Positions 20,814-61,170 of a DNA stretch of 64,000 nt are shown here, one piece after another. The stretch covers positions 2,688,001-2,752,000 of the forward strand of contig OY970192.1 of NCBI GenBank assembly GCA_963708135.1, written 5' to 3'. A program made the translations under genes and the position numbers. Under the pieces are notes generated by a model. It saw only the letters and a list, made by a program, of their open reading frames with translations, made no database searches and was not told the origin of the DNA. Each line of letters begins with the position of its first letter. The stretch's first letter is position 1. Origin of the DNA: an uncultured Gemmatimonadales bacterium (lineage in GTDB: Bacteria > Gemmatimonadota > Gemmatimonadetes > Longimicrobiales > RSA9).

Positions 20814-21120
20814 GGGAGTGGGGGAGTGGGGGAGTGGGAGACGGGCTGGCGGCGATGCGCGCCGCGAGAGGCCGGGCCGGGAGCGCTCACCGGCGTGCGC
20901 GGTTCCACGGCCGCGCCGCGACGGCGCGCTGCGCGACGGTGGCGCGACGCGGCGGCCCGCGGTGCGCGCCGGGAATCGTCGCCCGCGCGCGCCGGGATCG
21001 GCGCCGCGCACGGTGGCCAGAGGGACGCGGCGTGCGCCGGTATCGTCGCCGCGCACGGTGGCCGGAGGGACGCAGCGCGGGTAGCCGCGGTCCCCCACTC
21101 CCCCACTCCCCCACTCTCGG
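20814..21120. repeat. intergenic element bounded by inverted (GGGGAGT)n/(ACTCCCC)n arms (family C, copy 1)
   Basis: G-rich arm 20814-20840 and C-rich arm ~21091-21118; interior aligns by eye with the reverse complement of 42060-42270. Confidence 0.7.
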
Positions 21121-31055: not shown

Positions 31056-31356
31056 TTGGAGGATCCCCCGACGCGGCGTAGGGGGAAAGACTGTCACGAC
31101 CCGGCGCTCCGGTCGCCTCGCAAGGGCGTTCCACGCGGAGACGGCGGGGAGCGGAGTCACGAGGACCTGCTTCCAGCGCGCCGGGGCGAGGCGGTCCCCC
31201 GACCTGATCTCGACCACGAGCGCCCCCGCCACCAGCAGGCCCAGGCGGAGGATCCGGCCGGCCGCGTGGAACGCTGCTGATCCGTGCGGGGCACAGGAAT
31301 AGGAGGATGCGCCGGAGCTCGCGGGTTGGAGGATCCCCCGACACGGCGTGGGGGGA
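31056..31356. promoter_or_regulatory. two copies of a 31-bp palindromic motif (candidate operator) in the divergent fadL/acyl-CoA ligase spacer
   Basis: TTGGAGGATCCCCCGACRCGGCGTRGGGGGA at 31056-31086 and 31326-31356. Confidence 0.55.
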
Positions 31357-31434
31357 TTCCCTGGTGGCCCGGGCGCCGCGCATGGGCCACATTCCCGCGC
31401 GGAGCCGACCGTCACCCGAACCCCGCAAGGCACG

Positions 31435-33540
31435 ATGGCATCCTCGCTCGACAGCATCCTGAGACCCGCATCGGTGGCGGTGGTCGGCGCTAGCCGTACG
31501 CCGGGCACGATCGGCTGGCAGATCGTCAACAACCTGCTGCGCCACGGCTACCAGGGCGCGGTCTACCCGGTGAACCCGAAGGCGACGTCGGTGCACAGCG
31601 TCGCGGCGTTCCCAACTGTCACGGCGATCCCGGCGCGCGTGGACATGGCGGTCATCGTGGTGCCGAAGGACCTCGTGCTGGACGTCGTGGACGATTGCGG
31701 CGAGAAAGGGGTCGCCGGGCTCGTGGTCATCAGCGCCGGGTTCCGCGAGGTCGGCGGCGCGGGGGTGGAGCGCGAGCGCCAGCTGGCGGAGCGCGCGCGC
31801 CGCTACGGGATGCGGCTCGTCGGCCCCAACTGCATGGGTGTGCTGAACACCGATCCCGCGGTCTCCATGAACGCGACGTTCGCACCGACCATGCCGCCGC
31901 GCGGGTTCGTCAGCATGATGAGCCAGTCGGGCGCCATGGGCGTGACGATCCTCGACTACGCGGCGGAGTACGGCATCGGGATCCACGGCTTCGTGTCGGT
32001 GGGCAACAAGACGGACGTGAGCGGAAATGACCTGCTCGAGGCCTGGGAGCACGACCCGCTGACGCGCGTGATCCTGATGTACCTGGAGAGCTTCGGGAAC
32101 CCGCGCCGCTTCACGCAGATCGCGCGGCGGGTGACACAGACGAAGCCGATCGTGGTGGTGAAGTCCGGGCGCAGCGCCGCGGGAGCGCGGGCGGCATCGT
32201 CGCATACGGGGGCATTGGCGGGGCTCGACCTGGCCACGGACGCGCTGCTCGCGCAGTGCGGCGTGATCCGGGTGGACAGCGTGGAGGCGCTCTTCGACCT
32301 GGCCATGGCCTTCGGGACGCTGCCGCTGCCGGCCGGCGACTCCGTGGCCATCGTCACGAACGCCGGCGGCCCCGGGATCATCATCGCCAATGCCTGCGAG
32401 GCGGGCGGGCTCGAGGTGGCCGAGCTCTCGGACGTGACGCAGGCGCGGCTGCGCGAGGGGCTCGCCGCGGAGGCGAGCGTCCGCAACCCGGTCAACATGA
32501 TCGCCTCGGCCACGCCGGAGAGCTACCGCCACGCGCTCGAGACGGTGCTCCGCGACCCGGGCATCCACGCCGCCATCGCCGCGTTCGTGCCGCCGCTCGG
32601 GATCCGGCAGGAGGAGGTCGCGCAGGCCATCGTGCAGGTGCGCGACGCCATCCCCGACAAGCCGATCCTGGCCGTGCTGATGGGACGCGAGGGGCTGCCG
32701 GCCGGGCGCGCGGAGCTCAAGGAGGCCGGCGTCCCGGCCTACATATTCCCCGAGTCCGCCGCCCGCGCGCTCTCCGCCCTCGCCCGCCACCGCCGCTGGC
32801 TCGAGCGGCCGGCCGGCCGGGTGCGCCACTTCGAGGACGTCAACCGCGAAACCGTCGCCGCGATCCTCGAGCGCTGCGCCGGTGGCGACGGCATGCTGTC
32901 GGGCACCGACGCGCTCGACGTGCTCGCGGCGTACGGCGTGCCCACCATCCGCTACCGCGTGGTCACGAGCGCCGAGGACGCCGCGGCGGAGGCGCAGGCG
33001 CAGGGCTTCCCCGTGGTGCTCAAGATCCACTCGCCCGACATCGTGCACAAAACCGACGTGGGCGGCGTGGTCGTGGACCTGCGCACCGCCGACGAGGTGC
33101 GCGAGGCGTTCGACGCGATGATGAAGCGCGTGCGCGACGCCGTGCCCGACGCCCGCATCGAGGGCGTGCTCGTGCAGCAATACGCGCGCGGCGGGCGGGA
33201 GACGATCGTGGGCATGACCTACGACCCGAAGTTCGGACCGCTGCTCATGTTCGGGCTGGGCGGGATCTACGTCGAGGCGCTCCGCGACATCGCGTTCCGG
33301 ATCCAGCCCGTGAGCGACATCGACGCGCTCGAGATGGTCCGCTCGATCCGCGGGGTGAAGCTGCTCGAGGGGATCCGCGGCGAGCCCGCCGCCGACATGG
33401 ACGCCATCATCGAGGTCATCCAGCGCATCTCCCAGCTGGTCGGGGAGCATCCCGAGATCCGCGAGCTGGACGTCAATCCGCTGCTCGCCACGCCGGCCGG
33501 GGTGACGGGGGTGGATGCGAGGATCAGGATCCAGGCATAA
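31435..33540 (+). CDS. acetate/acyl-CoA ligase (ADP-forming), fused alpha-beta
   Basis: CoA-binding domain (VVGAS, YPVNP), GPNCMG, SQSG, SSHTGALAG, ATP-grasp HKTDVGGV, ELDVNP. Confidence 0.92.
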   Translation: MASSLDSILRPASVAVVGASRTPGTIGWQIVNNLLRHGYQGAVYPVNPKATSVHSVAAFPTVTAIPARVDMAVIVVPKDLVLDVVDDCGEKGVAGLVVISAGFREVGGAGVERERQLAERARRYGMRLVGPNCMGVLNTDPAVSMNATFAPTMPPRGFVSMMSQSGAMGVTILDYAAEYGIGIHGFVSVGNKTDVSGNDLLEAWEHDPLTRVILMYLESFGNPRRFTQIARRVTQTKPIVVVKSGRSAAGARAASSHTGALAGLDLATDALLAQCGVIRVDSVEALFDLAMAFGTLPLPAGDSVAIVTNAGGPGIIIANACEAGGLEVAELSDVTQARLREGLAAEASVRNPVNMIASATPESYRHALETVLRDPGIHAAIAAFVPPLGIRQEEVAQAIVQVRDAIPDKPILAVLMGREGLPAGRAELKEAGVPAYIFPESAARALSALARHRRWLERPAGRVRHFEDVNRETVAAILERCAGGDGMLSGTDALDVLAAYGVPTIRYRVVTSAEDAAAEAQAQGFPVVLKIHSPDIVHKTDVGGVVVDLRTADEVREAFDAMMKRVRDAVPDARIEGVLVQQYARGGRETIVGMTYDPKFGPLLMFGLGGIYVEALRDIAFRIQPVSDIDALEMVRSIRGVKLLEGIRGEPAADMDAIIEVIQRISQLVGEHPEIRELDVNPLLATPAGVTGVDARIRIQA

Positions 33541-33542
33541 TC

Positions 33543-34090
33543 AGAACGGGCACGGGTCACGGGCAGGGGCACGCGGACGGGCAGAAACGGCAGGCAGCCG
33601 GGCAGGGGCATGCGAAGGGGCACGCCCACGGGAACGGGAACCCCGGCAGGCACCCGGCCCGCCGCCATCGTTCCGCTGCCCGTCCCGGTGCCGGTGCCCT
33701 TGCCTGCCTGCCTGCGGGAGCTGCCCGTCCGCGTTCCCGTGCCCGTGGCCCCTGCCCGTCCGTTGAGAGACCGGGGCACGGGGCACGGGCAGGCGCACGC
33801 GGACGGGCAGAAACGGCAGGCAGCCGGGCAGGGGCATGCGAAGGGGCACGCCCGCGGGAACGGGAACCCCGGCGGGCACCCGGTCCGCCGCCATCGTTCC
33901 GCTGCCCGTCCCGGTACCGGTGCCCTTGCCCGCCTGCCTGCGGGAGCTGCCCGTCCGCGTTCCCGTGCCCGTGGCCCCTGCCCGTCCGTTGAGAGACCGG
34001 GGCACGGGTCACGGGCAGGCGCACGCGGACGGGCAGAAACGGCAGGCAGCCGGGCAGGGGCATGCGAAGGGGCACGCCCACGGGAACGGG
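33543..34090. repeat. tandem palindromic repeat array (family A), left arm: 2 full 226-bp units plus a partial unit
   Basis: Anchor CAGAAACGG at 33582, 33808 and 34034. Confidence 0.9.
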
Positions 34091-34144
34091 AGTCGGCGCA
34101 TTCTGGTATTCTGGTGCCCCGGAAAGCCGGCCAGCTTGGCCGGC

Positions 34145-34543
34145 ATGGTTCGACTCGATCACGAACGGCTCGAGGTTTACGGGATCGCGCTCCGATTCGA
34201 TAAGGAGATTCGCGGGCTGCTCCGGAGCATGCGGGCGCGGGGCGACACCGTCAACCAACTGAAGCGCGCTTCCGCCTCGGTGGTCCTCAACCTGGCCGAA
34301 GGTGCGGGTGAGTTCTCCGCGCGGGAGAAGACGCGCTTCTATCGGATCGCACGCCGGTCGGCCACGGAATGCGCCGCTACCCTGGATCTGCTCGTGAACC
34401 AGCGAACCCTGACCCGGGAGCAGGTCCTGCCACTCCGTGACCACCTGGTCCGGGTCATCTCCATGCTCGTGCGCCTGATGCAGCAGATCGACGCGGGGAG
34501 CTCTCGCGGGCGGCCCCGCCCACCGTCCCCCAACACCGGGTGA
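34145..34543 (+). CDS. four helix bundle protein (23S rRNA IVP / Avd-like family), copy 1
   Basis: DHERLEVY...NQLKRASASVVLNLAEGAG...RFYRIARRSATEC family signature. Confidence 0.9.
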   Translation: MVRLDHERLEVYGIALRFDKEIRGLLRSMRARGDTVNQLKRASASVVLNLAEGAGEFSAREKTRFYRIARRSATECAATLDLLVNQRTLTREQVLPLRDHLVRVISMLVRLMQQIDAGSSRGRPRPPSPNTG

Positions 34544-34580
34544 GCGTTCGGGTGCAGGTGATCCTAACCGAGCACGGAAC

Positions 34581-35922
34581 AGAACGGGGCACGGGTCACG
34601 GGCAGGCGCACGCGGACGGGCAGAAACGGCAGGCAGCCGGGCAGGGGCATGCGAAGGGGCAGGGGCACCGGAACGGGAACCCCGGCGGGCACCCGGTCCG
34701 CCGCCATCGTTCCGCTGCCCGTCCCGGTACCGGTGCCCTTGCCCGCCTGCCTGCGGGAGCTGCCCGTCCGCGTTCCCGTGCCCGTGGCCCCTGCCCGTCC
34801 GTTGAGAGGCCGGGCACGGGTCACGGGCAGGCGCACGCGGACGGGCAGAAACGGCAGGCAGCCGGGCAGGGGCATGCGAAGGGGCACGGCCACCGGAACG
34901 GGAACCCCGGCGGGCACCCGGTCCGCCGCCGTTCCGCTGCCCGTGCCGGTGCCGGTGCCCTTGCCCGCCTGCCTGCGGGAGCTGCCCGTCCGCGTTCCCG
35001 TGCCCGTGGCCCCTGCCCGTCCGTTGAGAGGCCGGGCACCGGTCACGGGCAGGCGCACGCGGACGGGCAGAAACGGCAGGCAGCCGGGCAGGGGCATGCG
35101 AAGGGGCACGGCCACCGGAACGGGAACCCCGGCGGGCACCCGGTCCGCCGCCATCGTTCCGCTGCCCGTCCCGGTGCCGGTGCCCTTGCCCGCCTGCCTG
35201 CGGGAGCTGCCCGTCCGCGTTCCCGTGCCCGTGGCCCCTGCCCGTCCGTTGAGAGGCCGGGCACGGGTCACGGGCAGGCGCACGCGGACGGGCAGAAACG
35301 GCAGGCAGCCGGGCAGGGGCATGCGAAGGGGCACGCCCACCGGAACGGGAACCGGTCCGCCGCCATCGTTCCGCTGCCCGTCCCGGTGCCGGTGCCCTTG
35401 CCTGCCTGCCTGCGGGAGCTGCCCGTCCGCGTTCCCGTGCCCGTGGCCCCTGGCCGTCCGTTGAGAGGCCGGGCACGGGTCATGGGCAGGCGCACGCGGA
35501 CGGGCAGAAACGGCAGGCAGCCGGGCAGGGGCATGCGAAGGGGCACGCCCACCGGAACGGGAACCGGTCCGCCGCCATCGTTCCGCTGCCCGTGCCGGTG
35601 CCGGTGCCCTTGCCCGCCTGCCTGCGGGAGCTGCCCGTCCGCGTTCCCGTGCCCGTGGCCCCTGCCCGTCCGTTGAGAGGCCGGGCACGGGTCACGGGCA
35701 GACGCACGCGGACGGGCAGAAACGGCAGGCAGCCGGGCAGGGGCATGCGAAGGGGCACGCCCACCGGAACGGGAACCGGTCCGCCGCCATCGTTCCGCTG
35801 CCCGTCCCGGTGCCGGTGCCCCTGCCCGCCTGCCTGCGGGAGCTGCCCGTCCGCGTTCCCGTGCCCGTGGCCCCTGCCCGTCCGTTTTCTCCGTGGACGT
35901 GGCCGTGCCCGTCCGCGTTCCC
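34581..35922. repeat. tandem palindromic repeat array (family A), right arm: 6 units of 212-225 bp plus a short tail
   Basis: Anchor CAGAAACGG at 34621, 34846, 35068, 35293, 35505 and 35717; internal IR ACGCGGACGGGCAG/CTGCCCGTCCGCGT in each unit. Confidence 0.9.
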
Positions 35923-36660
35923 CTACTCCAGGATCAGCCGCGCCCTGCGGAACCGCGCGGCCGCCGCGGCGAAGAGGAGGAGGTCGATCACGAGCAGCGC
36001 GGCGGCGGCGAGCTCGAGCAGGCGGTTCCGCCCGACGCCGGCGACCCACGCGGCGCCCGCCAGGCGCCAGGCGGGCGGAAGCAGGCCAACGCCGAGCACG
36101 GGCAGGAAGAGCACGGCGATGACGGCGGTGGTGAGCACCTGCTGCGCCTGCTTGACCGTGGTCGCGCGGAGCGAGATCAGGACGCCGGCGGCGGCGGTGA
36201 AGCCTGCGCCGAGGATGCTGAAGGCGATGGCGGCGGCGAGCGCGCGGGGCGAGTAAAGCACGAGGCCGGCGTCGCGGTGGGAGAGGTTCACGACGATGAG
36301 AGCGGTGGGCAGGATCGCGAATCCGACACCGATGCCGTAGAGCGTGACGGCGACGGTCTTGCCGAGCAGGATGGCGAGATCGGGGAGCCGCGTCGCGAGC
36401 AGGGTCTCGAGAGTGTGCCGCTCGCGCTCGCCGGCGAAGGTGTCGGGCACCAGGCCGGCGACCTGGAAGGTGGCGGCGAAGGCCACGAAGGCGCCGCCGG
36501 CCCACGAGCGCACGAAGGCCGGCCCCATCTGGAGCGGGTAGAGCACGCCGAGGATGAGGACGATCATGCCGATGCGGTACAGCCCGCGGCGGTTGTGCGG
36601 CTCGAGCTGCACGAGCTCGCGGATCTCCTTCCAGACGACGGTGGCCACGTCCCGGATCAC
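35923..36660 (-). CDS. ABC-2 type transporter permease
   Basis: VWKEIRE, FAGERERHTLETLLAT, ILLGK; 6 TM helices. Confidence 0.85.
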   Translation of the reverse strand: MIRDVATVVWKEIRELVQLEPHNRRGLYRIGMIVLILGVLYPLQMGPAFVRSWAGGAFVAFAATFQVAGLVPDTFAGERERHTLETLLATRLPDLAILLGKTVAVTLYGIGVGFAILPTALIVVNLSHRDAGLVLYSPRALAAAIAFSILGAGFTAAAGVLISLRATTVKQAQQVLTTAVIAVLFLPVLGVGLLPPAWRLAGAAWVAGVGRNRLLELAAAALLVIDLLLFAAAAARFRRARLILE

Positions 36661-37613
36661 GGCGTTCCCCCCTCCCCCTCCTCCATGAGCGTGAGGAACA
36701 CCTCCTCGAGCGACGCCTTGCCGCGACGCACCTCATCGACCTCCGCGCCCGCGTGGACCAGCGCGGCCACGAGCGGCGCGGGCGTGGCGCCATCGGCCAG
36801 CTCGGCGACGATCCGGCCGTTCTCGAGGCGCGCGCGCCGCACCGCCGGGAGGCACTCGAGCGTCGCCAGCGCGGCGGCGTCCACGCCGCGGGCCACGATC
36901 TCGACGCGCGGGCCGGCGCCGCGGGCGCGCAGCTCGTCCGGGTGGCCCACCGCGAGGAGGCGGCCGCCGCGGATCACGGCCACGCTCGCGCACAGCCGCT
37001 CGGCCTCGGTCAGGTTGTGCGTGGTGAGGAAGATCGTGGTCCCCTCGAGGGCGGCCAGCGCGGCGAGGTCCTCGCGCAGCGCGGCGGCGGCGATCGGATC
37101 GAGGCCGGCCGTCGGCTCGTCCAGGAACACGAGCGCGGGGTGGTGCAGCAGCGCCCGCGCCACGGCCAGCTTCTGCTTCATGCCGCGGCTCCAGCGGCTG
37201 ACGATCTCGCCGCGCCGCTCCCACAGCCCGAAGTGCTCGAGCAGCGCCTGGATGCGCGCCCGCCGCTCCTCCCGCCGCATGTGCCAGATGCGGCCGAAGT
37301 AATCCAGGTTGTCGGCCGCGCTGAGCCGCTCGTAGAGCCCGGTGTGCTCGAGCAGCGCGCCCGAGCGCGCGCGGATCTCGCCGGCCCCGGTGCGCGTGTC
37401 GAGGCCCAGCACCCGGGCGCGCCCGCCGGTCGGCTCGAGGAGCCCGAGCAGCAGCCGTATCGTCGTCGTCTTCCCCGCCCCGTTCGGGCCGATGAAGCCG
37501 AAGACCACGCCCGCCGGCACCTCGAAGCTCAGCCGGTCCGCGGCGACGAGGCTGCCGAACGCGCGCGTGAGCCCCTCCGCCGCGACAGCGGGCGACGCGG
37601 CCGGATCAGCCAT
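36657..37613 (-). CDS. ABC transporter ATP-binding protein
   Basis: GPNGAGKTT, WSRGM, FLDEPT, TTH. Confidence 0.92.
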   Translation of the reverse strand: MADPAASPAVAAEGLTRAFGSLVAADRLSFEVPAGVVFGFIGPNGAGKTTTIRLLLGLLEPTGGRARVLGLDTRTGAGEIRARSGALLEHTGLYERLSAADNLDYFGRIWHMRREERRARIQALLEHFGLWERRGEIVSRWSRGMKQKLAVARALLHHPALVFLDEPTAGLDPIAAAALREDLAALAALEGTTIFLTTHNLTEAERLCASVAVIRGGRLLAVGHPDELRARGAGPRVEIVARGVDAAALATLECLPAVRRARLENGRIVAELADGATPAPLVAALVHAGAEVDEVRRGKASLEEVFLTLMEEGEGGTP

Positions 37614-37812
37614 GGCTCGCCTTCCGCGGGCGAGCGCGACCACCGCTGGTCTGGCGCGCGCCCCGGCGATCGCCTACACCTTCAACGGGCCCGGGCCGGC
37701 AGCGCGGGCCGGGCGCGGGCGAGGCCAGCCGGAAGCGGAAAGGTTCGATCATGGCGTGCTACATACCGGTCGGGTGGTCCCGAAGTCAAACCCGGCGCGC
37801 GGGCGGGGACGC

Positions 37813-40424: not shown

Positions 40425-42038
40425 ATGGTGGCGCACTACCACCTGATCGGGATCGGCGGGACGGCCATGGCCTCCCTGGCCGGGCTGCTCCGGGCCGCGG
40501 GCCACACGGTCACCGGCTCCGATGAGAACGTCTACCCTCCGATGTCCACGCTGCTCGAGCAGCTCGGCATTCCGTACCGCGAGGGCTACGCGCCGGAGAA
40601 TCTGGAGCCCGCGCCGGACGTCGTCGTCGTGGGCAATGCCATTTCGCGCGGCAACGTCGAGCTCGAGGCGGTTCTCAACCGGAAGCTCCGCTACACGTCC
40701 GCTGCGGCCACGCTGAAGGAGGAGTTCATCCGCGGCCGCCACTCCCTCGCCGTGGCGGGGACGCACGGCAAGACGACGACGACCTCGCTCCTGGCCTGGG
40801 TCCTCGAGACCGCCGGGCTGAACCCGTCCTTCCTCGTCGGCGGCGTGGCGGAGAACTTCGGCACGTCCTTCCGCCTGACCAATGCGCCCTATTTCGTCAT
40901 CGAGGCCGACGAGTACGACACCGCCTACTTCGACAAGGGCCCCAAGATGTGGCACTACCTGCCGGACACCGCGGTGGTGACCAACATCGAGTTCGACCAC
41001 GCCGACATCTACCGCGACACGGAGGCCTACCGCTTCGCCTTCGCGCGCTTCATCAACCTGATCCCCTCGAACGGCACGCTCGTGGCCGGCTGGGACTCGC
41101 CCGCGGTCCGCGCGCTGGCCCCCCGCTCGTTCGCCCCTGTCCAGGGCTTCGACATCGACGCCCCCTCAGGCGACGCGGCGCTGCCGCCCGCCGGCTCCGC
41201 CTCCGAATCCGCGTCCGCCCCGGGGTCCGCGTCCGCCCCGGAGTCCGCGTCCGGCTCGGAGTCCGCGTCCGGCTCGGCCGCCGAGCGGGCTGCTCGCGCC
41301 GCGAACCCGATCCCGCCGCGAACGTCGCCCACTCCCCCCCTCCCCCACTCCCCCACTCTCGCGTCTCTCCACCCCCAGCCCCGCTGGCTCGCCCGCGACG
41401 TGGTCTTCGAGCCCGAGCGCACGCGCTTCACGGTGCTGCACGACGGCGCCGTCTGGGGCGAGGTCGAGACGCCGCTCGCGGGGGCCTTCAACGTCCGCAA
41501 CTGCCTGGCCGCCATCGCCGCGGCCACGGCCGTGGGCGCGGATCCCGGCGCCGTGCGCGACGGGCTGCGCACGTTCCGCAGCGTTCGTCGTCGCCTGGAG
41601 GTCCGGGGCGAGGCGGGCGGTGTGACGGTGATCGACGACTTCGCGCACCACCCGACAGCCGTGCGGGAGACGATCGATGCCGTGCGCCAGCGCTATCCCG
41701 GCCGCCGCCTCGTGGCCGTCTTCGAGCCGCGCAGCTACACCGCGCAGCGGCGGGAATTCCAGGCCGACTACCAGGCCGCGCTCGGCACCGCCGACCGCAT
41801 CGTCATGGCCGGGCTCTTCCACCCCGAGCGCTACACCCGCGAGACCGCCATCGACCCGCACGCCATGGTGGCCGCCTGGGAGGCCGGCGGAACACCCGCC
41901 GCGTATACCCCCGACCCCGACGAGATCGTGCGGGGGCTCGCCCGCGATCTGGCCGGCGGCGAGGTCGTGCTGATCATGTCGAACGGTGGGTTCGGCGCGA
42001 TCCACTCGAAGCTGCTGGATGCGCTGGGGCGGCGGTAG
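40425..42038 (+). CDS. mpl: UDP-MurNAc peptide ligase Mpl (MurC-like) with a low-complexity insertion
   Basis: HLIGIGGTAM, YPPMST, GTHGKTTT, EADEYDTAYFDK, IEFDHADIY, DDFAHHP, MSNGGFG. Confidence 0.88.
   Translation: MVAHYHLIGIGGTAMASLAGLLRAAGHTVTGSDENVYPPMSTLLEQLGIPYREGYAPENLEPAPDVVVVGNAISRGNVELEAVLNRKLRYTSAAATLKEEFIRGRHSLAVAGTHGKTTTTSLLAWVLETAGLNPSFLVGGVAENFGTSFRLTNAPYFVIEADEYDTAYFDKGPKMWHYLPDTAVVTNIEFDHADIYRDTEAYRFAFARFINLIPSNGTLVAGWDSPAVRALAPRSFAPVQGFDIDAPSGDAALPPAGSASESASAPGSASAPESASGSESASGSAAERAARAANPIPPRTSPTPPLPHSPTLASLHPQPRWLARDVVFEPERTRFTVLHDGAVWGEVETPLAGAFNVRNCLAAIAAATAVGADPGAVRDGLRTFRSVRRRLEVRGEAGGVTVIDDFAHHPTAVRETIDAVRQRYPGRRLVAVFEPRSYTAQRREFQADYQAALGTADRIVMAGLFHPERYTRETAIDPHAMVAAWEAGGTPAAYTPDPDEIVRGLARDLAGGEVVLIMSNGGFGAIHSKLLDALGRR
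41190..41360. repeat. in-frame repeats inside mpl: 18-bp tandem (GAGTCCGCGTCCGSCYCG) plus a family-C CCCCACT arm
   Basis: Encodes GSASESASAPGSASAPESASGSESASGS and SPTPPLPHSPTL. Confidence 0.7.
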
Positions 42039-42059: not shown

Positions 42060-42270
42060 CCCCGAGTGGGGGAGTGGGCGAGTGGGGGACGCGGCGGCTG
42101 CGCGGCTATCCTCCGGTTGCCGGGCGCGGAAGACGATCCCGGCGCTCGCGCGCACCGTGGCACCTGCGCACGCCGGCCGGGTCTGCCGGGCCCGGGAACG
42201 CGCGGCGCGCGTCGGCGTCGGCCCGTCTCCCACTCTCCCACTCCCCCACTCCCCCACTCTCCCACTCCCC
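42060..42270. repeat. family C element, copy 2 (inverted relative to copy 1), between convergent mpl and ybbP
   Basis: GAGTGGGGGAGTGGGCGAGTGGGG left arm; (CCCACTC)n right arm; shares GAGTGGGAGACGGGC...CGCGCCGCG...CCGGCGTGCGC with 20814-21120. Confidence 0.75.
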
Positions 42271-46353: not shown

Positions 46354-46965
46354 CTGCGCCTTCTCGCGCGGGGGCTGAACGGACGGGATGGGGATGGGGG
46401 TGGGGTTCGGGATCGATGGCGGCGGCTGCCCGGGTACGCCGATCTCCGGTTGCGCTGCTCGCCGGCGCGCCGCACGCTCACGGCAACCCCGCGCCGCCGC
46501 CGCCCCGCTTCCACCCCCGACCCTTCCGCACCGGCCGACGGGGCGGACTGATCCTGCGCCTTCTCGCGCGGGGGCTGAACGGACGGGTTGGGGATGGGGT
46601 CGGGGTTCGGGATCGGCGAGGGCGGCTGCTCGGGTACGCCGATCTCCGGTGGCGGCTGCTCGCCGCCGCGCGCACGCTGCACGGCAACCCCGCGCCGCCG
46701 CCGCCCTGCTTCCACCCCCGACCCTTCCGCACCGTTAACCAAAACTAAAACCAAAACTAAAACCAGCCGACGGGTCGGACTGATCCTGCGCCTTCTCGCG
46801 CGGGGGCTGAACGGACGGGTTGGGGATGGGGTCGGGGTTCGGGATCGATGGCGGCGGCTGCCCGGGTACGCCGATCTCCGGTTGCGCTGCTCGCCGGCGC
46901 GCCGCACGCTCACGGCAACCCCGCGCCGCCGCCGCCCTGCTTCCGCCCGGCACCCGTCCGCACCG
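46354..46965. repeat. tandem repeat array (family B): 3 units of ~200 bp, with an AT-rich (AAAACY)4 insert between units 2 and 3
   Basis: Anchor CTGCGCCTTCTCGCGCG at 46354, 46554 and 46786; core GGGTTGGGGATGGGGTCGGGGTTCGGG. Confidence 0.88.
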
Positions 46966-47099
46966 GCGGGGCGACCGGTCCAGACATTCCGCCGCCCCGC
47001 AGGCGGCGCCAGGTTCGGGGAAAGCGGCGGGCGGCGGGGCGGCGAGGTGCCGCGCGGTCGATCCGCGGACGACTCCTGGCTCTGCCCGATTGGCCCGGC

Positions 47100-47462
47100 A
47101 TGACTCCGAGAGATGGGTTCGATCATGAACGGCTGGAGGTGTTCCAGGCGGCGATCCAGCTGGCAGTGCTGATCGATCAGGTGGTGGAGCGAATCGCGCC
47201 CGGGCGCGCCGAGCTCGCGGACCAGCTCCGGCGCGCATCCACGTCGGTGCCGCTGAACATCGCCGAGGGCGCCGGCGAGTTCAGCCCGAAGGAGAAAGCA
47301 CGCTTCTACCGGATGGCCCTGCGCTCGGCGACGGAGTGCGGCGCGATCCTCCTGCTCCTCGAGCGCCTTGGGCTGCCGATCGATCCCGCGCCTCGCCGGC
47401 TGCTGCTCAGGATCGTGCCGATGCTCGTCCGGCTCTGCCAGAATGGACGGCGGGCCGGCTGA
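47100..47462 (+). CDS. four helix bundle protein (23S rRNA IVP / Avd-like family), copy 2
   Basis: FDHERLEVF...DQLRRASTSVPLNIAEGAGEFS...RFYRMALRSATEC. Confidence 0.9.
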   Translation: MTPRDGFDHERLEVFQAAIQLAVLIDQVVERIAPGRAELADQLRRASTSVPLNIAEGAGEFSPKEKARFYRMALRSATECGAILLLLERLGLPIDPAPRRLLLRIVPMLVRLCQNGRRAG

Positions 47463-47675
47463 GAACATCGTCGGACCCGGGCGTTCCGGGTCACCCTGGC
47501 GCCCGGCTGCCGGAGGTGGTGCGGCCGGGTTCCGGGGCGGCGGTCGAGGGGCCGAGGGGGCCGAAGGTAGGTTCAGGGTGGTAGCCGGCCGACGCGGGGT
47601 GGGGTTCGCAGTGAGCCCTCCGCGCGCCAGCGACGTTCCCCGCCGGAAGCACGCGCACCCGGGCGGCCCGCCGTG

Positions 47676-47713
47676 TCGATCCCGATCCCCGACCCCAACC
47701 CCAACCCGTCCGT
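47676..47713 (-). repeat. inverted copy of the family B core closing the second four-helix-bundle locus
   Basis: TCGATCCCGATCCCCGACCCCAACCCCAACCCGTCCGT is the near-exact reverse complement of ACGGACGGGTTGGGGATGGGGTCGGGGTTCGGGATCGA. Confidence 0.8.
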
Positions 47714-47736
47714 CGGGACGCCCGGATGAGCCCGGC

Positions 47737-49608
47737 TCACCCGGCGGCCTGCCTCCCGCCGCCGCTCGCCCGCAGCGCGTTCAGGATGACGGCGACGTCG
47801 ATCGCCTCCTGCGCCAGCGCGCCGACCGTGGGCGGGATCATGCCGAAGGCGGCGAACACCATCCCGACCGCGCTGAGGCCGAGGCCGACCCAGATGCTCT
47901 GGCGCGCGATGCGCAACGTGCGCCGGCTGGTGCGCAGCGCCTCGACCACGCGGTCGAGCTCGTCCACCAGGATCACGATCTCGGCCGCCTCGGTGGTGAT
48001 CCCGCCGCCGTGGCCGGCCAGCGCGATGCCCACGTCGGCGGTGCTGAGGGCGGGGGCGTCGTTGGTGCCGTCGCCGACCATGACCACGCCGTCGTGGCCG
48101 CGCCGCAGGTCCCGGATGGCGGCCACCTTGTCCTCGGGGAGCAGTTCGCCCCGGGCATCCTCGATGCCGAGCTCGTCGGCGATCGCGCGCGTGTGGCTCG
48201 CGTGGTCGCCGGAGAGCAGGACGGTGCGGCGGATCCCGAGCCGGCGCAGGTCGGCGAACACCTCGGCCGTCCCCGGCCGCAGGCGGTCCGCGAAGCGGAT
48301 CATGCCGGCGGCCCCTCCATCCACGGCCACGTACGCCCTGAGCCCCGTCCACGTCTCGCCCAGCGCGGTGAGCGTGGGCACGGCGTCGGGGGCGAGCAGC
48401 GCGATGTAGCCCAGCGAGCCGACGGCGACGCGGCGGCCGGCCACGTCGCCTTCCACCCCGCGACCCGGCGACTCCGTGACGTGCAGCCCGGCGCCCGGGC
48501 GGATGCCGCGCGCCTCGGCGGCGGCCACCACGGTGCGGGCGAGCAGGTGGCTGGAGGCCTGCTCGGCCGTGGCGGCCAGGCGCAGCAGCTCGTCGGCGCT
48601 GAAGCCGGGTGCGGGGTCGAGTCCGGAGACCTGCGGCTGCCCGATCGTCAGCGTGCCGGTCTTGTCGAAGACGACGATGGTGGCGCCCGCCAGCTGCTCG
48701 AGGGCGCCGCCGTTCCGCACGATCACCTGGCGCCGCGCCGCCCGGTTGATGCCGCCGATGATCGCCACGGGCGTGGCCAGGATCAGTGGACAGGGCGTGG
48801 CGATGACGAGCACGGCCAGCACCCGCACCGGGTCGTGCGTGAGCAGGAGGACCAAGCCGCAGAAGAGGAGCGTGATGGGCGTGAACCAAACGGCGTAGCG
48901 GTCGGCCAGGCGCTGGAGCGGCGACTTGCTCTCCTGCGCGGTGCGCACGAGCTCCACGATGCGCGCGTACTGGCTTTCGCGGGCGAGGGCCGTGGCGCGC
49001 AGCCGCAGCGAGCCCTCGCCGTTCACGCTGCCGCTCAGCAGGTGCGCGCCCGCCTCGGTCGGCACGCCCATCGGCTCGCCCGTGAGCCGCGAGGCGTCCA
49101 CGTGCGAGCGGCCATCGACCACCACGCCGTCGCACGGCACCAGCTCGCCCGGCCGGACGAGCAGCAGGTCGCCGACCGCCACCGCGTCGGCCGGCACGTC
49201 CTCGAGCGCGCCGTCGCGCACCCGGTGCGCGTGCCGCGGCGCCGCCTCCTCGAGCTCGCGGACGGCCCGCGAGGCACGGCCCTCCGCGTAGCGCTCGAGC
49301 GACTCGCCGCCCGTCTGCATCAGCACCACCACGAGGCCCGCGAGCGGCTCGTTCAGCAGCACCGCCGCCAGCACCGCCAGGGAAGCGACGAGGTCCGCCG
49401 CGAATTTCCCGCGCAGCGCCCCGCGCAGCGTGCCCAGGACCACCGGCGCGCCGACCAGGATGAGCCCCGCCTCGAGCGTAAGGTGGCCCCACCGCTCCAG
49501 CCCCGGGAGGAAGCGCAGGGTCGTGCCCACCAGGATGAACGCCAGCGCGGCGGCCGGGAACAGCACGGCCCCGCGGCGACGATCCATGGCCGGCAGCCGG
49601 CGGCTCAC
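47737..49608 (-). CDS. heavy-metal P1B-type ATPase (P1B-5 signature)
   Basis: GGAGG RBS + GTG; LTGEP, TPCP, DKTGT, MVGDGTND, Q-x4-G-x3-S-x3-M, P-x6-QE-x2-D-x5-N. Confidence 0.88.
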   Translation of the reverse strand: MSRRLPAMDRRRGAVLFPAAALAFILVGTTLRFLPGLERWGHLTLEAGLILVGAPVVLGTLRGALRGKFAADLVASLAVLAAVLLNEPLAGLVVVLMQTGGESLERYAEGRASRAVRELEEAAPRHAHRVRDGALEDVPADAVAVGDLLLVRPGELVPCDGVVVDGRSHVDASRLTGEPMGVPTEAGAHLLSGSVNGEGSLRLRATALARESQYARIVELVRTAQESKSPLQRLADRYAVWFTPITLLFCGLVLLLTHDPVRVLAVLVIATPCPLILATPVAIIGGINRAARRQVIVRNGGALEQLAGATIVVFDKTGTLTIGQPQVSGLDPAPGFSADELLRLAATAEQASSHLLARTVVAAAEARGIRPGAGLHVTESPGRGVEGDVAGRRVAVGSLGYIALLAPDAVPTLTALGETWTGLRAYVAVDGGAAGMIRFADRLRPGTAEVFADLRRLGIRRTVLLSGDHASHTRAIADELGIEDARGELLPEDKVAAIRDLRRGHDGVVMVGDGTNDAPALSTADVGIALAGHGGGITTEAAEIVILVDELDRVVEALRTSRRTLRIARQSIWVGLGLSAVGMVFAAFGMIPPTVGALAQEAIDVAVILNALRASGGGRQAAG

Positions 49609-60907: not shown

Positions 60908-61170
60908 CCCGGCGGCGGGCCGGGGGCTCCCGGAGCGACCCTGCTGTTGCGAAGGCGGTCGCCGCGGTGGCCTCCCGGGGCCGGGGCGGCCTGGCACGGC
61001 CCGGCGGCGGGCCGGGGGCTCCCCGGAGCGACCCTGCCGTTGCGAAGGCGGTCGCCGCGGTGGCCTCCCGGGGCGGGGGCGGCCTGGCACGGCCCGGCGG
61101 CGGGCCGGGGGCTCCCCGGAGCGACCCTGCTGTTGCGAAGGCGGTCGCGAAGGGGAGCCCCCGGCGCGCC
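60908..61170. repeat. 93-bp tandem palindromic repeat, ~2.7 units (family E)
   Basis: Anchor GAGCGACCCTG at 60933, 61026 and 61119; GCGACC/GGTCGC stem; closed by GGGGAGCCCCCGG. Confidence 0.85.

Follow-up and report, generated by a model that had tools for sequence, protein, structure and literature searches.

What kind of element places a single gene for a small four-helix-bundle protein inside a long run of tandem hairpin-forming repeats? The question is raised by a 64,000-nt stretch of DNA (hereafter, the window) from an uncultured Gemmatimonadales bacterium (contig OY970192.1), in which the 2.4-kb spacer between convergent acyl-CoA synthetase and ABC-2 permease genes consists wholly of a tandem array and a 132-aa gene of the PF05635/TIGR02436 family. 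We propose, with moderate confidence, that the locus is a cassette of the intervening sequence (IVS) type, that is, a PF05635 gene between complementary arms of GGGCAC-type words, in which a gene-less arm pair has been amplified to 8.4 units and whose protein likely binds the word. Evidence for this reading includes the gene-between-inverted-arms layout around most relatives and the link between arm word and protein clade. The genome is a single contig of 5.45 Mb, with 72% G+C and 97.65% completeness. Five-digit locus coordinates (31348-37643) are those of the window, which corresponds to genome positions 2688001-2752000; 65917-66055 and all six- and seven-digit positions are those of the whole genome.

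Complementary arms and their words around PF05635 genes

The genome carries 11 PF05635 genes (12 hidden Markov model (HMM) matches, two of which are halves of one gene). Read by eye, all 11 have short tandem repeats upstream and the reverse complement downstream, the word differing from gene to gene (e.g., GGTTTT/AAACCC, AAGAGC/GCTCTT-like, and GGGGCAGGTTCA/TGAACCTGCCCC), and the PF05635 genes of relatives have private, gene-specific arm words too. To quantify the layout, we aligned the upstream flank locally with the reverse complement of the downstream flank, a locus passing when it exceeded the 99th percentile of controls, which were non-cognate flank pairs in all sets and, for both Gemmatimonadota sets, random genome positions as well. 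Controls were beaten by 8 of the 11 loci in this genome, by 23 of 35 in Gemmatimonadota including this genome (3 of 38 were dropped for short flanks), and by 33 of 67 in other phyla (13 of 80 dropped for the same reason). At the locus considered here, the flank arm score is 131 against a threshold of 42; the nearest two arms are both G-rich, so that pairing needs the next arm. In a blind scan of the genome for inverted repeats, PF05635 genes occupy 8 of the 94 flagged loci, ranks 1 and 3 among them. As far as genome sequences can tell, the gene and the repeats belong together, and the association is real.

The rank-1 locus (3230550-3235800) is a second case of a PF05635 gene in a long array. 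Behind its gene (3235055-3235360, minus strand) lies a 3-kb array of ~120- and ~240-nt hairpin units with octamer ends, AGAGTGGG/CTCCCACT. The octamer-ended unit is mostly local, with 19 local matches and 1 good distant copy. This array reaches a putative comEA gene, taken as such for its helix-hairpin-helix repeats, behind which lie two further units.

Further evidence comes from the word itself. We took the best 80 of the 461 relatives of the 132-aa protein, whose hosts include Myxococcota, Planctomycetota, Chlamydiota, Legionellaceae/Coxiellaceae, Verrucomicrobiota, Lentisphaerota, Acidobacteriota, and others, and labelled a locus when at least 3 GGGCAC/GTGCCC words fell within 48 nt of flank, a strict definition that misses degenerate arms such as those of this locus. 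The label was assigned to 36 of the best 80 relatives, from at least 8 phyla, with inverted pairs in 26 of the 80; labelled relatives include AT-rich hosts (flank G+C of 0.40-0.47), and those in other phyla display clean runs of 3-8 words. Of the 38 loci in the mixed-clade Gemmatimonadota set, 1 is labelled. In a protein tree of 126 rows, all 37 labelled rows fall within one 91-row clade and none of the 35 rows outside it is labelled; the label changes 19 times along the tree, compared with a mean of 32.1 for shuffled labels (0 of 500 shuffles as low). The rows nearest to the 132-aa protein are Gemmatimonadaceae and Longimicrobiales records, and the intermixing of phyla in the 91-row clade points to horizontal transfer. 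The same link is seen within single genomes: in two genomes, one from Chlamydiae and one from Planctomycetota, GTGCCC/GGGCAC arms flank the clade member, whereas 10 paralogues of other clades use different words, for example TAGCTGT, GGCGAAA, GAATGGACT, and GACCGA. Among the genomes compared, the word thus follows the protein clade both across phyla and within individual genomes. Between differently named taxa, labelled proteins share 44-90% identity (median 59%), and the persistence of a word in non-coding arms over this range of protein divergence indicates constraint, from which we infer that the protein, or something acting with it, reads the GGGCAC-type word.

In one Nannocystaceae metagenome-assembled genome, three copies of the clade gene (L124, L125, and L177) are 86-91% identical over the gene, the downstream GGGCAC arm, and a further hairpin. 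For L124 and L125 the likeness also extends over ~500 nt upstream, the repeated unit being larger than the cassette alone.

The hairpin array and its four-helix-bundle protein

The features of the locus and its neighbours are as follows.

31348-33540, + strand: NDP-forming (nucleoside diphosphate-forming) acyl-CoA synthetase gene, left neighbour (open reading frame (ORF) list; Pfam ATP-grasp_5, Succ_CoA_lig, CoA_binding_2)
33543-34091, + strand: left array, with lead AGAAC and units 1 (33548-33773), 2 (33774-33999), and 3 (34000-34091, G-rich arm only) (Tandem Repeats Finder (TRF); unit alignment; repeat families)
34095-34122, + strand: 28-nt promoter-like motif between the upstream arm and the start codon (position weight matrix (PWM), 25.5-26.3 bits; sole copy in 33400-36100)
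34145-34543, + strand: four-helix-bundle gene, 132 aa, PF05635/TIGR02436 (profile matches; AlphaFold2; Foldseek)
34581-35890, + strand: right array, with lead AGAACG and units 34587-34811, 34812-35033, 35034-35258, 35259-35470, 35471-35682, and 35683-35890 (TRF; unit alignment; nhmmer, 214-236 bits per unit)
35843-35922, + strand: tail, a 31-nt sub-repeat of the C-rich arm in 2.6 copies, reaching the permease stop codon (TRF; repeat families)
35923-36660, - strand: ABC-2 type permease gene, convergent right neighbour (ORF list; Pfam ABC2_membrane)
36660-37643, - strand: ABC ATPase gene, upstream of the permease gene (ORF list; Pfam ABC_tran)

The array comprises 8.4 palindromic units of 212-226 bp arranged head-to-tail, and a 495-bp stretch occupied by the 132-aa gene separates its left part from its right part. 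The synthetase stop codon (TAA, 33538-33540) is followed after 2 nt by the array lead AGAACGGG at 33543, and the permease stop codon (CTA on the + strand) lies at 35923-35925. Both parts open alike, with AGAACGGG(G)CACGGGTCAC, and the third left unit ends after its 92-nt G-rich arm. TRF assigned to the left array (33548-34091) a period of 226 with 2.4 copies, 97% matches, and a score of 1039, and to the right array (34690-35886) periods of 212 and 424 with scores of 1452 and 2095. Units start at 33548, 33774, and 34000 on the left of the gene and at 34587, 34812, 35034, 35259, 35471, and 35683 on its right, at spacings of 226, 226, 587 (gene-bearing), 225, 222, 225, 212, and 212, the last unit being ~208 bp long; the last three right units lack 13 nt of the loop. 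Unit variants are grouped in ordered blocks (226; 225/222/225; 212 with the 13-nt deletion), which argues for stepwise duplication rather than an assembly artefact. Whole units of 212-226 bp repeat at 91-100% identity with no unique spacers, unlike in a CRISPR array.

Each unit consists of a T-poor, G/purine-rich arm, a ~30-nt loop, and an A-poor, C/pyrimidine-rich complement; the arms reach 194 nt in length, at 73-76% complementarity, and the AT skew is about +/-0.85. Each arm can be read as ~15 degenerate GGGCAC-type hexamers and contains ~10 G-runs per 92 nt. Folded as single-stranded DNA, one unit reaches -87.5 kcal/mol (z = -5.97; 0 of 200 shuffles as good), and any arm has a choice of two pairing partners in this head-to-tail array, its own complement and the arm of the adjacent unit, which lies 7 nt away. 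A sequence-only reading of this stretch had described an array running from the synthetase stop to the permease stop, with 2.4 units on the left and 6 on the right of a lone four-helix-bundle gene, all in one orientation and with a shared start, each unit forming an imperfect palindrome on a GGGCAC hexamer; ORF coordinates, TRF, unit alignment, and folding agree with this description throughout.

The HMM searches equally confirmed the family assignment of the gene. The 132-aa protein matches PF05635 over residues 7-109 (E 1.9e-18; 67.1 bits vs. a cut-off of 33.8) and TIGR02436 (E 8.4e-17; 61.4 bits vs. a cut-off of 24), and its AlphaFold2 model (pLDDT 93.7) consists of four helices (2-27, 34-53, 59-85, and 91-120). 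Foldseek places the predicted fold closest to 2gsc (Xcc0516) and 2rld (BT_0352), with TM of 0.75-0.89 and rmsd of 1.4-2.3; phmmer also recovers 2gsc (E 1.6e-4), and each of the two structures is present with five chains. The kinship with Avd, the accessory protein of diversity-generating retroelements (DGRs), which had been anticipated from the sequence, is detected by Foldseek as a weaker match (4dwl_D, TMt 0.83; DGR ribonucleoprotein 8ub7_B, TMq 0.71; identity of 11-13%). The family motif, given as GxxRxxxSxxxNxxE in the accessible part of one study (PMC3936711), is represented in its R-x3-S-x3-N-x2-E portion by R41, S45, N49, and E52; across 20 sequences, S45 does not vary, and conservation is at least 90% at R41, N49, E52, and E75. 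No HuH, nuclease, recombinase, or transposase fold was found in the protein, profile searches giving PF05635 and TIGR02436 only. Like Avd, which is pentameric and acts on structured nucleic acid, the protein has a four-helix-bundle fold; unlike in the Avd system, this genome has neither a reverse transcriptase nor a template/variable repeat.

Searches for known functional elements gave no alternative identity. No Rfam family, rRNA included, reached its gathering score within the 64-kb window, in keeping with the earlier remark that rRNA is absent, and Rfam and Pfam together place the insert between two protein genes, not in a 23S rRNA helix. Comparison with known RNA families gave only sub-threshold matches to GC-rich animal microRNA hairpins (21-32 bits vs. 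cut-offs of 74-107). PADLOC defence-system models gave no match, and neither a sigma-70 promoter nor an intrinsic terminator was predicted in 33400-36100. A look through public sequencing runs listed none of RNA that contains the locus.

The closest known system is the ORF-bearing IVS of 23S rRNA (Ralph and McClelland 1993, as cited in PMC3936711). With it the locus shares a PF05635 protein, a small insert with complementary ends that may form a stem, and the proposed selfish behaviour and horizontal acquisition; it differs in lying outside an rRNA gene, in having arms of tandem short words amplified to 8.4 units of ~220 bp, and in having a promoter-like motif of its own. The Coxiella burnetii IVS, as described in the available part of the report, is 428 nt long, contains an S23p ORF, is considered selfish, and is excised by RNase III (PMC4990558). 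Within a literature search that included few subscription journals, we encountered no account of a PF05635 gene that lies outside rRNA and is framed by inverted arms of tandem repeats, and none of a clade-to-word link. The module is thus undescribed in the literature searched, as the sequence-only reading had supposed, although it has close kin in the ORF-bearing 23S rRNA IVSs; what is new is the amplification of an arm pair into a long array around the gene, together with a clade-to-word link across phyla and within genomes.

On this basis, a mechanism can be outlined for the proposed cassette. A pentameric, Avd-like protein would recognise the repeated word on folded DNA or RNA. The arms would pair as a long stem from which the insert is looped out, either in RNA (by RNase III, as for rRNA IVSs) or in single-stranded DNA during uptake or replication; a looped-out cassette would cost the host little and could be kept or copied by host recombination. 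Since an arm can pair with the one on either side of it, slippage in pairing and unequal recombination might have enlarged the array. If the direct G-arms at 34000-34091 and 34587-34678 recombined, the gene would be lost and only hairpin units would remain, and such deletion may be the origin of gene-less arrays and solo arms elsewhere. The array itself would then be a by-product of the cassette.

Counter-evidence and competing explanations

Several observations weigh against the cassette reading. At the locus itself, the arms are degenerate, with at most 2 CACG cores in strict 6-nt register; the gene is bordered by two G-arms in direct orientation (34000-34091 and 34587-34678) rather than by a simple inverted pair; the array units contain no copy of the 28-nt motif; and, if that motif is a promoter, the gene's transcript would not include the 5' arm. 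The number of units derives from a single assembly. Across loci, 12 of 35 Gemmatimonadota and 34 of 67 other-phyla loci fail to beat controls. Close Gemmatimonadota relatives of the protein bear other words, so that the clade does not fix the word, and the grouping of labels on the tree is in part a product of kinship and of the horizontal transfer of whole cassettes. Binding, transcription, and movement all belong to a mechanism inferred from sequence.

The insertion history adds to this list. The C-terminal 299 aa of the synthetase served to search 60 genomes of the family, from which 29 loci were read. The empty site envisaged earlier, with the ligase joined directly to the permease, did not appear among these loci: a permease lies within 1.5 kb in 0 of the 29 relatives, synteny is not kept, and there is no orthologous empty site. 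In favour of the cassette reading, on the other hand, this array lies behind the synthetase gene in none of the 29; 3 of the loci (L078, L084, and L085) bear other repeats directly after the stop codon.

The alternative that survives best, and which we nevertheless regard as unlikely, is RNA-level insulation only, whereby the arms form an RNase III stem that excises the insert from read-through transcripts and the protein is unrelated to the arms. The Coxiella IVS offers a precedent, within the part of that report available (PMC4990558), and arm sequence varies freely among loci yet stays complementary. Furthermore, in 7 of 8 units the + strand RNA folds 6-15 kcal/mol better than the - strand RNA and forms more G-U pairs, a modest difference that also counts against the cassette reading. 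However, a role confined to the stem leaves unexplained why word and clade remain linked at 44-90% identity, AT-rich hosts included, and the promoter-like motif is located inside the arms. Arm mismatches at 23 loci show no clear G-U bias in the sense strand (66 sense, 47 antisense, and 215 other vs. 1658 Watson-Crick), which is a difficulty for insulation and for the cassette alike; the two counts (G-U vs. A-C, 66 vs. 47) do not separate RNA-level from DNA-level action.

Still less probable, in our estimation, is a system akin to repetitive extragenic palindromes (REPs) and REP-associated tyrosine transposases (RAYTs), in which the protein cuts out or copies the structured repeat and spreads it through the genome. 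RAYTs are relatives of HuH (IS200/IS605-like) transposases, and REPs are dispersed, near-identical short palindromes of 20-40 bp present in tens to hundreds of copies. The locus resembles REP/RAYT systems (and REPINs) in having a gene flanked by cognate palindromic repeats, in the existence of gene-less copies, and in the proposed protein-repeat specificity. Some dispersal is evident as well. When the genome was searched with the unit by nhmmer, 8 full and 1 partial matches fell at the locus and 1 partial match elsewhere, the others being weak (at most 38 bits). The distant copy (65917-66055) covers 139 nt at 94% identity in reverse orientation, 2.66 Mb from the array, and comprises the G-arm, the loop, and the start of the C-arm. 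Diverged relatives of the G-arm, collinear over ~100 nt, lie behind stop codons at 853091, 4850490, and 4937353, and the arms before the paralogue at 3905303 are also collinear with the G-arm of this locus. Tracts dense in GGGCA/TGCCC occur in 27 further genome regions, some collinear with the G-arm, and 2 of the 11 PF05635 genes adjoin such tracts.

On the other side, a HuH, nuclease, or recombinase fold is absent from the protein; the units that are near-identical all lie locally; every paralogue uses a private word, instead of one master serving many REPs; and the octamer-ended unit of the second arrayed gene is mostly local too. The repeats are hexamer arrays, with about one near-identical copy and some tens of diverged tracts outside the locus. 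Judged by these matches, dispersal of the unit is low-copy and old, with no REP-like swarm. Of the REP/RAYT-like module proposed by the sequence-only reading, the bond between gene and repeat and a plausible cognate relation between protein and repeat are retained; the transposase-like analogy fares less well, given the lack of a HuH or nuclease fold, the single partial copy outside the locus, and the private words. The genome-wide unit search likewise gave a divided answer, the near-identical unit being almost private and diverged solo arms being present at other loci.

Coincidence or artefact, i.e., a four-helix-bundle gene that landed in an unrelated G-quadruplex-prone satellite or in an assembly expansion, is very improbable. 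G-rich short repeats without a linked gene are known: in the available part of their paper, Rehm et al. (2015) describe heptamers, GGGAATC in Xanthomonas and GGGGA(C/T)T in Nostoc, which are mostly intergenic, close to stop codons, and prone to form G-quadruplexes or stem-loops, with 70-75 convergent inverted pairs in Xanthomonas (PMC4692102). That part of the text ties the heptamers to no gene ('S23' is absent from it) and reports that they show no association with mobile elements (PMC4692102). The arms at our locus are like these repeats in that they can be read as short G-tract words in tandem and lie between genes in inverted pairs, and unlike them in that the word is a hexamer, with ~15 degenerate words per arm and a PF05635 gene between the arms; Rehm-type repeats have words of 6-9 nt, often in about four copies, and the present arms are far longer and less regular. 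In addition, other hairpin-unit arrays of this genome lack a PF05635 gene, and the sole public run with DNA of the locus consists of short contigs that cover the flanks and the gene but not the array, being uninformative on array length either way. Against coincidence stand the arm statistics (8/11, 23/35, and 33/67 above controls), the presence of two separate PF05635 genes of the genome in such arrays, the ordered blocks of unit variants expected for real stepwise duplication, and the homology between the arms of the paralogue at 3905303 and those of this locus.

Finally, a DGR remnant, i.e., an Avd-type gene left behind without its reverse transcriptase and template repeat, is close to refuted: the predicted fold does resemble Avd (4dwl_D and 8ub7_B), and PF05635 is the commonest family in DGR neighbourhoods according to the available part of a published account (PMC10053308), but the RVT_1 reverse transcriptase has 0 matches in this whole, 97.65% complete single-contig genome with 11 such genes, as the earlier reading had suspected for the vicinity, and the units are whole-length copies with no template/variable pair.

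An upstream motif and gene-less arms

The 28-nt motif, with consensus GGCCCATCCCGCCATGGCGGCGCCCCGG, was searched for with a PWM built from PF05635 upstream regions. Genome-wide, 52 sites score at least 17 bits, compared with 1 and 3 in reversed-sequence controls. The motif precedes 8 of the 11 PF05635 genes and is also found before PilB-like ATPase, ComF-like, RecQ, YraN, and miaB-comEC genes, before 3 AbiEi-DUF559, 2 Uma2, and 4 IS91-type transposase genes, and before some housekeeping genes; two ssb genes are preceded by sites below the 17-bit limit (16.4 and 15.8). No copy was found before dprA or comEA. The sites thus stand before genes of DNA uptake and DNA processing as well as before many selfish genes, and they may mark a regulon. 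A sigma-54 reading of the motif was set aside, the GG-to-GC spacing being 2 nt too short for the sigma-54 consensus, and the idea that the units are gene-less cassettes retaining the motif was ruled out by the zero motif copies in the units. Pairings can be drawn by eye in some motif instances; the sequence is too GC-rich to tell a hairpin.

More tentatively, the cassette reading can be extended to the family as a whole. PF05635 proteins might be sequence-specific word readers, with clade and word together forming a transposase-free mobile cassette that is shared across phyla and includes the classical rRNA IVS; here, the cassette would be co-switched with a DNA-uptake regulon and would spread or persist by natural transformation, with hairpin arrays and solo arms as its gene-less offspring. 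PF05635/TIGR02436 is very widespread, encompassing rRNA IVSs, relatives of DGR Avd, and cas loci, and we know of no function for it outside DGRs. If true, this extension would explain what the rRNA IVS ORF is for and where two kinds of repeat come from, namely the G-rich short inverted repeats that abound in bacterial intergenic DNA and the long hairpin-unit arrays that break assemblies, and would define a class of selfish DNA that moves without an enzyme of its own. The clade-to-word pairs provide a ready specificity matrix for binding. Regarding cas loci, Zhang and Ye list 18 PF05635 genes inside them, repeats being unmentioned in the accessible part of the paper (PMC3936711).

Other loci of the genome and its relatives display arms with or without a gene. 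The window contains a further PF05635 gene (47100-47459, + strand; 71.2 bits), with features within 46737-47800: AACCAAAACTAA repeats and GGGTTGGGGATGGGG upstream, CCCCGACCCCAACCCC downstream (arm score of 102 vs. a threshold of 42), and an upstream copy of the motif (24.8 bits). The PF05635 gene at genome positions 2369145-2370787 is split into halves ~1.3 kb apart by coding-looking DNA, a putative insertion sequence; its outer arms (AAGAGC-type upstream, complement downstream) are still complementary, with a score of 63, and in relative G002 the same arm word occurs at the equivalent position with the arms swapped between sides. At window positions 20814-21116, 8-nt words (GGGAGTGG x3 and TCCCCCAC x3) form an inverted pair around ~250 nt that include a 45-nt tandem repeat, and runs of CCCACTCC and TCTCCCAC lie ~870 nt apart at 41328-41358 and 42226-42267. 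These octamer-word runs look like gene-less members of the octamer-ended hairpin family.

Among the relatives, the host stop codon can lie inside the first arm word (TAG in GCGCTAG in G011; TGA in TCTGAGA in G004), and in G004 gene-less arms behind the synthetase gene share their word type with the arms of that genome's PF05635 gene. In G001, G003, G004, G005, G006, and G011, many of the PF05635 matches are no more than a few hundred bases away from the end of a contig, as expected if flanking repeats break short-read assemblies. Elsewhere in the window, a 93-nt tandem repeat (2.6 copies, 97% matches) occupies 60908-61148.

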